Below are positions 18,099 through 49,351 of a DNA stretch of 64,000 nucleotides, piece by piece. A program made the position numbers and the translations under genes. Every line of letters begins with the position of its first letter. Position 1 is the stretch's first letter. Origin of the DNA: an uncultured Verrucomicrobiae bacterium (lineage in GTDB: Bacteria > Verrucomicrobiota > Verrucomicrobiia > Chthoniobacterales > JAFAMB01); NCBI GenBank assembly GCA_963813025.1, contig CAWEXO010000013.1, positions 64,001-128,000 of the forward strand, written 5' to 3'. The notes beneath the pieces were generated by a model. It ran no database searches. It was not told the DNA's origin and saw nothing but the letters and a program-made list of their open reading frames with translations.

Positions 18099-18476
18099 GC
18101 ACGGACGAGGCCGGGCTTATCGGACTTTGGAAAATCTGTAGCACGCCACCCAAGCGATTGGTCGCCCGAGCGGTTAGAGATCGTCTCAGAATGCCGCACT
18201 GTCTTGTGGGTGTAGGGCAGTATGTGAGTATGTCTCGCAACATCTCAAAATCGGTAGGGCGAGAATTCATCTGAGCCTTCGGCGAAGACTCGTTCGAGCC
18301 GCGCGCTGCGGCAGGTCACGCTGAAGACGGCTCAAACAAGTTCTCGCTAAGGCTCGAATAAATTTTCGCCCTACCGGCGCAGGACCAAAGATGCTTTGGG
18401 ACATGTCTCGAACCTTAGCTCGATTGCGCGAGTTACAGATTGGCCAAAGTCCGACAGACCCGAGGCCGTCCGCGCT
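18099..18476. repeat. Nested palindromic repeat cassette between divergent gcvT and gcvP
   Basis: Outer imperfect inverted pair (about 18099-18142 / 18432-18476; related copy near 35079-35130); inner GTAG-type REP pair 18252-18270 / 18328-18378. Confidence 0.75.
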
Positions 18477-22547: not shown

Positions 22548-22868
22548 GTGTCAGTGCTGGTGTCAGTGTCGGTGCCTCCCGCGCAGAGCAAGCGATCGAC
22601 CGCCAGGGTTGGGACATTTGTCTCGCAATATAGTCAGCCCTGTGTCGGTGCACGAAAAATCAGTGCCCGGCTCAAACAAGTTCTCGCTAAAGCGCAAATA
22701 AATTCTCGCCCTACCGGCACAGAACCAGAGACAGGTTGCGAGACAATCTCCGAATTGTCGCTACTGGCGCGAGACGAGAGGCTACCTTGTCAGGCAGTCC
22801 CTAAATTGTCGACACGTCGATCGTTTGCTGCACGCCGCTAACACTGACACTAGCACTAACACTGACAC
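22548..22868. repeat. 6-nt periodic inverted repeats enclosing a GTAG-type REP copy
   Basis: (GTGTCA)n-like at 22548-22574, (ACACTG)n-like at 22837-22868, REP copy at 22667-22718. Confidence 0.75.
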
Positions 22869-28227: not shown

Positions 28228-28372
28228 GAGACCTAGTAGCATAAGCGCGACGAAGGACAACGAGACACTCGGATATCAGCTGTCTCTCGGATTTTGCGAA
28301 GTCTGGAGCGCACGCATCGAGTGATCGGTGAGACAAGAATTGAAAGCCGTCCCACAACATTCTTCGCCCTGT

Positions 28373-28657
28373 GCCGGTAGGGCGAAAATTTATTCGAGCT
28401 CTTGGCGAGAACTTGTTTGAGCCGGACGCTGGAGTTGCCACATCCAAGGCGGCTTCTCCTTCGCTAAGGGGATCGGGCGCATTCCACGACATGCAGTGAA
28501 ATGGCGGAATCTTCGTGGCAGAATCTGGATAATGAACGATGTTGGAAAACAATGTCGTTTCTGAGCCTTGGGCAGAGACTTGTTCGATCTTTCTGGAACA
28601 TTGCTGACCCAACGCCCGGCTCAAACAAGTTCTCGCTAAGGCTCGAATGAATTTTCG
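28373..28657. repeat. Inverted pair of GTAG-type REP-like repeats; right copy interrupted by IS110
   Basis: 28373-28425 is the reverse complement of the unit at 18328-18378 and 22667-22718; the right copy 28616-28657 stops at ATTTTCG and resumes as CCCTACCGGC at 30356. Confidence 0.88.
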
Positions 28658-28796
28658 TATAGCAAGTCCGTATAGCAAGTCCGGAGTTATTCAGCAAGCT
28701 GTGGTCGGAGGCCCTACCGGTCGGAGCTCCAGCTTGTGAATAACTCCGCCCGGAGAAAAGAAAGCTTTGGAAAAAAGAAAGGGTTTTCTTTGCCAA

Positions 28797-28997
28797 GGGC
28801 AGTCGGGCAAAATCCCGCGCTGCCCACGCGAAGAAGGACGCGCCGGCTGGCTACGAATAGGATTTTCGGGTCCGCGAGATCTTTAGGGCAGAGTTTCGAG
28901 CCAGCCGGTCGCGCTTTGATTCGTCACAACGAATACTCTAGTTGAGGTCGAGCACTTCACACTTCGACGACTTAACTATACGGATTTCGGACGGCCA
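28797..28997 (+). ncRNA. Predicted bridge RNA of IS110 element 1 (ends approximate)
   Basis: Stem 28843-28852/28899-28908 encloses ATTTTCG (left target) and TAGGGCA (reverse complement of right junction); a second loop has ATACT and CTATACG matching the element ends. Confidence 0.75.
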
Positions 28998-29048
28998 AAG
29001 CCAAGCGGCTTTTTTCGCGCTGGGTAAAACCAGAAAAAAGGAGCAAGC

Positions 29049-30323
29049 ATGAACCGATCAAATCCGTTTCCGGTCCCAGATCCCCATTATATGGTCAGCG
29101 TGGGAATCGATTGGGCTGATAAAGAACACGCTGTCTGTCAACGCTCTGGTCCGGAGGGAGGATGCCGGACATTCCAGCTGGGCGCCGATCCCGTTTCGGT
29201 TCGGACCTGGCTCGAAGAGCTCAAAAGCTTGGCTGGTCCGCAGGGGCGGGTGGCCATTGGTTTTGAACAAAATCGGGGAGCACTCTTTGAAATGCTCCGC
29301 ACCCAGGGAGACTGGATCGACCTCTATCCGCTCAATCCTTTGAGTTTAAGCGAATACCGCAAGGTCTTCTTTACTAGTGGCGCCAAGGATGACCCTCGCG
29401 ACAGCCAATTGATCGAAGAGCTCGTTGATCACCATCGGGATCGGCTCCGGCTTTATCAACCCCCGGAGCCGGTAGTGCGGGAACTGGATTTGCTCGGTCA
29501 GCACCGACGCAAAGCCGTCGAGGCCTCCGTGGTGTGCGAAAACCAACTCACCAGCTTACTCAAAGTCTACTATCCGCTGGCCCTCGAGCTCCTCGATGAT
29601 TTGGGCACCACTCTGGCGCTGCATTTTTTGAAACGCTGGCCGACCCTGCAGAGTTTAAAAAAAGCCAAGCCCCAGACCCTGCGCTCTTTTTTTTATCAGC
29701 ACCACAGCCGCAGCCAGAGCTTGATCGAGGAGCGCTTGGAAAAGATTGCTCGGGCCCAAACCGTCACCGAGGATCGTTCTCTGCTGGAGCCCTCCGTGCT
29801 GAGTTGCAAGTGTTTGGTCAGTCAATTGTTGCCGCTGCGAGATTCCATCAAGGCTTTTGACAAAGCCATCCACACTCTGTTTGCCAAACATCCCGATCGG
29901 CACATTTTTGAAAGTCTGCCCGGAGCCGGCCCGCAATTAGCCCCGCGCTTGTTGGTGGCTTTTGGCTCCAATCGGCAGGCTTTTGCCCAAGCCCTGGAGG
30001 TACAGAAAAAAAGCGGAATCGCTCCGGTCCAAGTGCGCAGCGGCCAAACCAAAAGCGTCCAGCGGCGGCGCTTTCGCTCCAAATTCCTGTGCCAGAGCTT
30101 CCACGAATTCGCGGCTCATTCCATTCCTTATTCCCAATGGGCCAAGCTCTATTATCAAGAGCAAATGGCCCGCGGTAAGTCCCACCACACTGCCGTGCGC
30201 GCCTTGGCCTTTAAATGGATCCGCGTCATCTTCCGGCTCTGGCAGGACCGCACCCCTTATGACGAAGAGCGCTACCTCCAAGTCCTCAAAAAACGCCACT
30301 CACCAATCGGTGAAAAACTTTAA
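29049..30323 (+). CDS. IS110 family transposase/recombinase
   Basis: VGIDWA, GFEQ and AKDDPRDS DEDD RuvC-like motifs; SLPGAG and GIAPVQVRSG with the conserved serine. Confidence 0.95.
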   Translation: MNRSNPFPVPDPHYMVSVGIDWADKEHAVCQRSGPEGGCRTFQLGADPVSVRTWLEELKSLAGPQGRVAIGFEQNRGALFEMLRTQGDWIDLYPLNPLSLSEYRKVFFTSGAKDDPRDSQLIEELVDHHRDRLRLYQPPEPVVRELDLLGQHRRKAVEASVVCENQLTSLLKVYYPLALELLDDLGTTLALHFLKRWPTLQSLKKAKPQTLRSFFYQHHSRSQSLIEERLEKIARAQTVTEDRSLLEPSVLSCKCLVSQLLPLRDSIKAFDKAIHTLFAKHPDRHIFESLPGAGPQLAPRLLVAFGSNRQAFAQALEVQKKSGIAPVQVRSGQTKSVQRRRFRSKFLCQSFHEFAAHSIPYSQWAKLYYQEQMARGKSHHTAVRALAFKWIRVIFRLWQDRTPYDEERYLQVLKKRHSPIGEKL

Positions 30324-30601
30324 CTTTTTCCCTTGCCAGACCTGCTCAGATACTGCCCTACCGGCACAGGGGCTTGCTCATCGTCGGAGCATCGGCATTC
30401 TCACCGGTTGTCTTTGAACAAGCTACAAGATCTCATCCTTAGGGGAAGACGTTTCGCTTTCGGGTGCAGATGGTGACGATGCAAAGCATTATGATGAGAA
30501 AAATGTTGCCAGAGCCGATACCCGAACCAGGCTCACTGATCGTGCCAAGATTGCGGATCTGGGCGTTCACGTTACACTAAACTTTTCCAAGGTGTTTTCT
30601 T

Positions 30602-49140: not shown

Positions 49141-49271
49141 AGGGCAAGCTCCTGCTTGACCAATTTGATCACGAGATGACTTGCTCAAATGGTCAAGCGG
49201 GAGCTTGCCCGGGATTGCCCCTACCGGCCTTGGGTATTGCGAGACAACCTCTAAATTCTCGCCCTACGGGC
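49141..49271. repeat. REP-like hairpin and partial GTAG-REP copy
   Basis: GGGCAAGCTCCTGCTTGACCA / TGGTCAAGCGGGAGCTTGCCC arms; TAAATTCTCGCCCTAC at 49252-49267. Confidence 0.7.
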
Positions 49272-49351
49272 AAGCGGCGTTTGTCAAGCAAGGACAAACG
49301 CCATTTTTCAGGTTGCCAACCCCGATGGAAAGGGTATTTTCCCGGCTCCTT

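Follow-up and report, generated by a model that had tools for sequence, protein, structure and literature searches.

What brings an insertion sequence, again and again, to one and the same point in its host's own dispersed repeat? The question is raised by an IS110-family element in the genome of an uncultured Verrucomicrobiae bacterium (4.42 Mb in 16 contigs, 55.9% G+C), where it occupies positions 28658-30355 on the plus strand of the window, that is, of the whole 64,000-nucleotide stretch that was analysed (C13:64001-128000); it measures 1698 bp, or 1685 bp without a 13 bp duplication at its left end. We hold it to be very probable that this is a mobile, intact member of the IS110 group whose left-end bridge RNA guides its insertion to the tip of the host repeat. 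The case is built on the anatomy of the element, its site specificity, the covariation within the structure of the RNA and the covariation of the guides with the flanking DNA, all four of which are directly observed.

The junctions, read directly from the sequence, are AATTTTCG/TATAGC at 28657/28658 and GATACTG/CCCTACC at 30355/30356, and the host repeat is split between ATTTTCG and CCCTACC. A preliminary description of this stretch had drawn the element from 28616 to 30368, a span that contains it but adds both halves of the split repeat. Elsewhere in the genome the same junctions recur: there are ten full copies at 98-100% identity and one truncated remnant of 230 bp (C1:207767-207996), the left flank reads (A/G)AATTTTCG at all 11 left junctions, and all ten right flanks start with CCCTACC, after an element end in ...GATACTG or, in one copy, ...GATACTA. 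Insertion is thus site-specific, with identical junctions at all copies and a single base, G, that could be assigned to either element or target; the ten full copies and the partial one all lie at ATTTTCG/CCCTACC, and none at an unrelated site. Site-specific insertion, the lack of long terminal inverted repeats and the lack of a multi-base target duplication are among the features by which the element belongs to the IS110 group.

Between the left end and the ATG of the recombinase gene lies a non-coding stretch of 391 nt, which has the architecture of a bridge RNA as described for IS621 (PMC11208160, PMC11208158; for these and all further papers cited, statements refer to excerpts of the source). 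The region 28790-29010 folds at -89.4 kcal/mol, against -71.1 +/- 4.7 for its shuffles (z -3.9), and none of 200 shuffles folds as well. An RNA profile made from the closest five relatives matched 68 distinct sequences, so the upstream regions of the relatives are recognisably homologous. From an alignment of 35 sequences we derived a consensus of 27 pairs in seven helices: a basal stem and an inner hairpin round a first internal loop, a linker helix, and a basal and a distal stem round a second loop. These pairs are formed in 91.8% of cells, compared with 76.1% in shuffles, and cells with changes on both sides number 132 as against 36.5; no shuffle in 500 reaches the observed value on any pairing measure, and 3' partners slid out of place are paired in 27-49%. 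Helices 1-4, which make up the target-loop region, are paired in 78.6-98.6% of cells, with 13 of their 15 pairs persisting through changes on both sides, and helices 6 and 7 of the donor-binding loop in 97.9% and 88.3%. The stem and the four short stretches that the preliminary description had marked here (ATTTTCG, TAGGGCA, ATACT and CTATACG) all lie where it placed them, and three of the four keep the role it gave them, one with a reservation.

The first loop holds the two target guides. The last seven bases of the left target guide (LTG), those read as such from the outset (28862-28868), equal the top strand of the left target with its core, lie in hypervariable columns and covary with left flanks. 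The right target guide (RTG), proposed at 28884-28890, covaries with right flanks; its reverse complement agrees with the 8 nt CTGCCCTA of the right junction, and G28891 pairs with the C before TG in the right end. Its last base (A28890) does not fit the proposal, however: its partner is a T that belongs to the right end of the element, where the empty target has C. Mean column entropy is 1.76 bits over the nine columns of the LTG and 1.61 bits over 28884-28890 of the RTG, compared with 0.24-0.97 bits for the scaffold and about 0.8 bits immediately beside the LTG.

The agreement of guides with flanks was measured across about 80 relatives of 41-72% protein identity. From 161 sources (160 loci and the window), 97 gave both loop anchors, which reduced to 82 distinct target loops; a usable left flank was available for 55 of the 82 and a usable right flank for 65, the remainder being dropped at a contig end or for want of a TATAG or CTCAG end motif. 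Element ends were located independently of the target guides, by a TATAG-type left end (the donor guide choosing where this was ambiguous) and a CTCAG-type right-end motif. Of the seven non-core positions of the LTG, 4.82 on average agree with the left flank of the same element (n=55; permuted 2.73 +/- 0.15, highest of 2000 permutations 3.29), and of six RTG positions 4.28 agree with its right flank (n=65; permuted 2.10 +/- 0.13, maximum 2.54). For the window's own element the left flank was read from the inner copy of the duplication, and its score is the lower for it. Where a sub-clade has other end motifs, the fixed register gives it low scores, and these means are therefore conservative. 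A change was also caught between close relatives. Among the four closest (L012, L013, L093 and L094, about 70% identical in amino acids), L013, L093 and L094 are inserted at AGGTTTTCG, where the left junction is on the contig, and L012, L013 and L093, where the right junction is, at a site that continues with CCCTACC; the RNA of all four reads UAGGUUUUCG where that of the window reads AGGAUUUUCG. Flank AGGTTTTCG goes with guide AGGUUUUCG, and ATTTTCG with AUUUUCG: one flank base and its matching guide base have changed together.

These data also bear on the alternative that the recombinase protein itself reads the repeat tip or its hairpin, the RNA matches being incidental or auxiliary. The target does lie at the tip of a long palindrome, seven of the nine LTG bases match, and the stem-loop of the ISPpu10 target is described as adding specificity beyond base pairing (bioRxiv 10.64898/2026.03.19.712850). 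We nevertheless regard this explanation as improbable, since both guides follow their own flanks throughout the family, far outside the permutations, since no columns of this otherwise conserved RNA vary as much as those of the guides, and since relatives at 41-52% identity have unrelated insertion sites, each in agreement with the guides of the element concerned.

In the second loop, the right donor guide (RDG), already recognized as CTATACG at 28976-28982, stands in the same register as the family's CUAUAAG, the complement of CT+TATAG. The two bases that follow it agree with left-target positions 6-7 at 1.20 of two positions (permuted 0.84 +/- 0.08; n=41), behaving as described for the handshake guides of IS621 (PMC11208158). 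For the left donor guide (LDG) the preliminary description had put forward ATACT (28933-28937), and this is probably wrong. The stretch lies within the invariant scaffold ACGAAUACUC; it occurs in the scaffold of 48 of the 82 family members and in the right end of one of 72, the window element, and the 70% relatives retain it although their right end reads GTTACTG, so that its match with the right end is probably a coincidence. The probable LDG is instead the adjoining ACUCUAGUU. Across the family, the part of the loop that follows the scaffold (CUCAGAUG) is the same as the motif of the right end, CTCAGATG, and the two vary together: of the six bases behind CTC an average of 3.96 agree with the right end of the same element, as against 3.31 +/- 0.11 on permutation (maximum 3.67; n=72).

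The protein is a genuine but distant IS110-family recombinase. Both of its Pfam domains score above the curated cut-offs (PF01548, E 1.3e-20, 74.2 bits; PF02371, E 1.1e-8, 35.8 bits), E73, D115, D118 and S331 are invariant among 25 relatives, and the 424-aa open reading frame (ORF) is open in all ten full copies, as befits the divergent, apparently intact recombinase first proposed. In phmmer searches its Tnp domain aligns to two solved recombinases, that of ISCro4 (E 2e-6) and that of IS621 (E 8.7e-6), and in both the SG serine is aligned with S331; by analogy with S241 of IS621 (PMC11208158), S331 is the putative catalytic serine. The nearest named relatives of the element come from metagenome-assembled genomes of Verrucomicrobiota and Acidobacteriota.

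Put together, the left end, which precedes the recombinase gene, would encode a bridge RNA that has a pair of internal loops, in the first of which the LTG and RTG would jointly specify ATTTTCG/CCCTA at the repeat tip. In the donor loop, CUAUACG would pair with the left end (CG/TG + TATAG), and the right end, of CTCAGAT type, would be bound by a 5' stretch that is less clear. The cycle may follow that of IS621: the element would be excised as a circle, in which the right end, joined to the TATAGC of the left end, would form a sigma-70-type promoter (TTGCCA, 17 nt, TATAGC) to drive expression of the RNA; the corresponding family motifs are TTGACA and TATAGT, 17 nt apart in the same geometry. 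The DEDD/serine recombinase would then exchange strands at the core, catalysis too being assumed by analogy. A consensus scan of 28600-29100 gave one promoter-like site, on the minus strand, and no terminator-like site. The central proposal of the preliminary description, that of a bridge recombinase programmed against the host's repeat, is thus supported both by site specificity and by guide covariation.

Several observations weigh against this scheme. The first two LTG bases (GG) mismatch the flank, which reads GA or AA, and the LDG of the window element is poorly matched (CTC, one extra base, then AG). Kinship to the IS621 protein is distant and confined to the Tnp domain (phmmer E 8.7e-6). 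The core is CG/TG and not the CT preferred by IS621, whose T is described as contacted by the protein (PMC11208158), so that catalytic details may differ. An Rfam scan of 28300-30500 with E up to 10 returned 11 matches; all were weak, with scores far under the gathering thresholds, and no bridge-RNA family was among them. The assembly contains no circle-junction 13-mers, contigs from four sequencing runs showed no joint and hence neither a circle junction nor an empty site, and among the sequencing runs that contain the stretch no RNA run is listed.

The core dinucleotide deserves closer examination. It is CG at all 11 left junctions and TG at nine of the ten right junctions, with TA at the tenth, so that target (CG) and element (TG) share one core base, G. 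In IS621 and its close relatives both boundaries carry CT, with an almost invariant T (PMC11208158); the window element lacks this core and is accordingly not filed in the IS621 clade. Among the relatives CT is commonest, at 34 of 55 left and 41 of 72 right boundaries, and TG, CG, AT and others also occur. The ends of the element align without gaps to those of the family (CG+TATAG with CT+TATAG, CTCAGATAC+TG with CTCAGATAT+CT), which, with a 17-nt spacing of -35 and -10 as in the relatives, sets the core register at (C/T)G. The guides are split in the same way: LTG and RDG carry CG and the RTG the complement of TG, with the RTG strand of the window RNA having one extra base relative to most relatives, and the RTG and RDG are perfectly paired with the product junctions only. 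This split is seen again in L086 from Paraburkholderia (43% identical), with CG in LTG and RDG, TG in RTG and right end, and junctions CG and TG. In the 52% group each of the five members (L095-L099) has TG in its right end and in LTG, RTG and RDG; the three whose left junction was found (L095, L097 and L098) have it there too. In L071 and L146 the core apparently reads CA at the left junction and in three of the guides but TG at the right end, which would leave the boundaries without a common core base; L087 shares their guides and TG right end, its left end was unmatched in one analysis, and its left flank reads CG.

Two other assignments of the core were tried and rejected. A CT-core donor with a CG target and two-base exchange predicts GATACT+CCCTA, which is not observed, and a target core TC with a donor core CT would have no base in common and would displace LTG and RDG from the register of the family. 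A further possibility is that insertion is guided but that its true target is a rare 13 bp variant, ATTTT-CN-GCCCTA, with a shared two-base core and a CT-core donor, the 136 exact 12-mers in the genome not being real targets. Read in the register of most relatives, with three bases separating guide from stem, the RTG would indeed specify CT+GCCCTA, which is the exact right junction. The genome, however, holds no copy of ATTTTC(G/T)GCCCTA against 136 of the 12-mer, so that all 11 variant sites would have to be occupied and none left empty; in addition, the right end aligns gap-free to the family with TG, the 17-nt spacing is kept only if TG comes last, and the extra base in the RTG strand explains the shifted register. 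We consider this variant target very unlikely.

Retaining the 12-mer as the target and (C/T)G as the core register, we entertain as a tentative idea, and one more likely wrong than right, that the first core base differs deliberately (C in the target, T in the element) and acts as an extra handshake position, the genomic junctions being the record of a top-strand transfer resolved by replication. The CA of the RTG would pair perfectly only with donor-derived TG, and the CG of the RDG only with target-derived CG, that is, in either case after top-strand exchange, and since both guides pair fully with the product, base pairs would be gained as the reaction runs forward. The differing base would also serve as a natural marker of the strands. 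The pattern expected of a top-strand product (left CG, right TG or TA) is present in all ten full copies and in L013 and L093, L086 agrees with it in guides and junctions, and the reciprocal configuration (left TG, right CG) is present in none of the ten. Under a two-base staggered double-strand exchange with random segregation the reciprocal form would be expected half the time, and a one-sided outcome in ten of ten about once in 1000. One-sided junctions fit top-strand transfer, a one-base crossover or biased mismatch repair; top-strand transfer has been proposed for other IS110 elements in two preprints (bioRxiv 10.1101/2025.10.25.684509; 10.64898/2026.08.31.748434).

That the copies are relics spread by duplication or by recombination between repeats, and not by current transposition, is hardly credible: abundant repeats could mediate rearrangements, and one copy is truncated, but the ten full copies are spread over eight contigs with unrelated outer flanks, seven of them differ by at most a few bases, the ORFs of all ten are intact, and a genome of the same genus (G001) was searched and has no copy. 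At the orthologous locus in G001 the two flanking genes lie about 87 bp apart with neither repeat nor insertion sequence between them, so that the sequence of the repeat before insertion is unreadable there. The full copies fall into two haplotypes, of seven and three copies, about 25 positions apart.

Two of the copies differ at their right ends. That at C4:2772-4451 of the host genome reads ...GATACTA/CCCTACC, with A for G at the shared right core base and the usual CG at the left junction. In that at C16:83676-85354 one base is missing from the right-end motif (CTC-GATACTG compared with CTCAGATACTG), which would alter the putative match with the left donor and the spacing of the circle promoter.

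The 13 bp duplication of the left end is carried by the window copy (haplotype A), by the C11 copy at 76286-77975 (haplotype B) and by the remnant, and is absent from the other eight full copies; since it is found in both haplotypes, once in each, as well as in the remnant, it has arisen or been lost more than once and is thus recurrent. A haplotype-B-like copy without it is present in one soil-metagenome run. The internal joint of the duplication, GTC-CG-TATAG, matches the reverse complement of the RDG and its next two bases at nine of nine positions, which hints at a by-product made by the recombinase. Downstream of the duplication, GCCCTACCGG stands in the loop of the 5' hairpin. It has the sequence of the target's right side and is complementary to the RNA's own RTG; it could be there by chance, as a captured flank or as a self-masking element. 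A mir-223-type Rfam match at this stem-loop is spurious.

The supply of targets is large. The exact empty 12-mer ATTTTCGCCCTA occurs 136 times genome-wide, the exact 15-mer 127 times, and 277 sites lie within two mismatches of the 15-mer. In the window a 20-mer was matched four times at up to three mismatches, compared with none expected from 100 shuffles. Both empty targets described beforehand as perfect are exact (18362-18373 on the plus strand and 28378-28389 on the minus strand); the copy reported at 22667-22718 is a copy of the repeat but has one mismatch and so is not a perfect target. It belongs to the second commonest tip variant, AATTCTCG..., which numbers 46 copies and has none of the 11 insertions; as this would occur by chance with a probability of about 0.09, it is weak evidence that insertions discriminate against the variant.

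The repeat itself is a palindromic unit of about 125 bp with a target at each tip. Among the 277 tips there are 73 outward-facing inverted pairs, mostly 122-126 bp apart, and a further 31 tips, in tandem on one strand at distances of 44-55 bp, belong to a second, shorter module (...ATGTTGCGAGACAYTCTCTAAATTTTCGCCCTACC); the tip is thus common to at least two repeat modules. Examples of the shorter one are seen at C1:93307-93373 and C8:74970-75036. The repeat is mostly intergenic, since 84 of the 277 tips lie inside stop-free frames of at least 150 aa and such frames make up 85.5% of the genome. The tip has the sequence GGTAGGGCG.../...CGCCCTACC, also written GGTAGGGCGAAAAT/ATTTTCGCCCTACC, and carries the GTAG/CTAC head that is typical of repetitive extragenic palindromes (REPs). 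Classical REPs and the bacterial interspersed mosaic elements (BIMEs) that they compose consist of units of about 20-40 nt in clusters of alternating units, and a REP-associated tyrosine transposase (RAYT) is a Y1 transposase flanked by REPs. Three PF01797 (Y1) matches were found genome-wide, and no repeat tip lies within 1.2 kb of any of them. The name REP, used in the preliminary description, therefore holds in the broad REP/BIME sense of a high-copy intergenic palindrome with a GTAG head, and fails in the narrower one, given a unit of about 125 bp and no link to a RAYT. The exact 15-mer was found in three of 20 relative genomes searched, with six copies in G001, 57 in G007 and ten in G010 (none for a control read backwards); in G007, which belongs to a different genus of the host's family, these tips delimit a palindromic unit arrayed in tandem with a period of 90-92 bp. 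It is a so far undescribed REP/BIME-like family, present in several genera of the host's family.

Table 1. Positions of the features discussed (window coordinates unless a contig is named)
Feature	Position	Strand	Basis	Remarks
Left half of split repeat arm	28616..28657	+		ends in left target ATTTT + core CG (28656-28657)
13-bp tandem duplication of left end	28658-28670 and 28671-28683	+	sequence and copy comparison	TATAGCAAGTCCG twice
5' stem-loop of non-coding left end	28684..28748	+	sequence	stem kept in 70% relatives, loop sequence not
Target-loop region	28843..28908	+	fold and covariation	10-bp stem CCGGCTGGCT (28843-28852) / AGCCAGCCGG (28899-28908)
Left target guide (LTG)	28860..28868	+		GGAUUUUCG; last seven bases = top strand ATTTT + core CG
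Right target guide (RTG)	28884..28892	+	sequence, entropy, covariation	UAGGGCA, complement of TG+CCCTA, then handshake-position GA
Donor-binding loop	28929..28991	+		basal stem CGAA (28930-28933) / UUCG (28986-28989); distal stem about 28947-28968
Probable left donor guide (LDG)	28935..28943	+		ACUCUAGUU; imperfect match to right-end GCTCAGAT
Right donor guide (RDG)	28976..28984	+	family register	CUAUACG, complement of CG+TATAG, plus handshake-position GA
Recombinase gene	29049..30323	+	Pfam	424 aa; DEDD RuvC-like and Tnp domains; S331 in conserved RSG motif
Right end	30333..30355	+		-35-like TTGCCA (30333-30338) and 17-nt spacer ending in core TG (30354-30355)
Right half of split repeat	30356..30368	+		right target CCCTACC and beyond; CCCTACC follows 10/10 right ends
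Empty exact 12-mer in another repeat copy	18362..18373	+	sequence search	
Neighbouring intact repeat arm	28362..28425	-		empty exact target at 28378-28389
Repeat copy with one mismatch in left target	22701-22720			reads AATTCTCG; not a perfect target
Fourth, poorer repeat copy	49254-49273		20-mer search	
G007 arrays L187 and L188	C2:1173800-1175200 and 1177800-1179000			4.3 and 5.8 copies; BIME-like clusters
Y1 (HUH) transposase-like frames	C11:985715-986434, C5:185071-185694, C14:330799-331092			29-37 bits; one just 98 aa

IS110 elements that home to REPs, and the bridge or seek RNAs that guide them, are established (PMC11208160, PMC11208158, PMC11187229, PMC12288879; ISPpu10 preprint, bioRxiv 10.64898/2026.03.19.712850), and the element described here is an added case from an under-sampled phylum, with a modest variation in its core. 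It provides a natural example of bridge-RNA targeting from a Verrucomicrobiae genome, with ten insertions, more than 100 empty sites and relatives in which guide and site change together, and a useful test case for rules of guide prediction in distant IS110 clades. The core, non-CT and unequal at the two ends, is the sole part of the system able to inform open questions, namely how far the two cores must agree for the recombinase to act and whether natural strand exchange involves one strand or both; such variation may already have been catalogued.

One of the closest known parallels is IS621 of Escherichia coli, which according to the descriptions available (PMC11208160, PMC11208158) likewise combines a DEDD RuvC-like and Tnp serine recombinase with an upstream non-coding RNA bearing target and donor loops, has an LTG equal to the top strand of left target and core and an RTG complementary to core and right target, inserts beside the CTAC/GTAG head of an extragenic palindromic repeat, and has a -35 in its right end and a -10 in its left end that would join in the circle. 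It differs in having a chain of 328 residues as against 424 aa, similar to the window protein in the Tnp domain only, and a CT core on both sides where the window element has CG (target and left junction) and TG (right end); in the clade of the window element, moreover, the stretch matched by the LDG stops about three bases short of the core, and the host repeat is a palindrome of about 125 bp and not a short REP. ISPpu9 and ISPpu10 of Pseudomonas putida resemble the window element in lying, in multiple copies, at the same position of a repeated intergenic palindrome (PMC12288879), and guidance by a bridge RNA is reported for ISPpu10 (bioRxiv 10.64898/2026.03.19.712850); host phylum, target and core are different, a comparison made by description and not by sequence. 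ISEc21 and ISMch6, members of another clade with seekRNAs, are also of IS110 type with an upstream non-coding RNA that matches each target strand, and natural redirection is described between relatives about 72% identical (PMC11187229), a situation comparable to that of the window element and its 70% relatives, except that the latter differ by a change at a single position and not by a new site.

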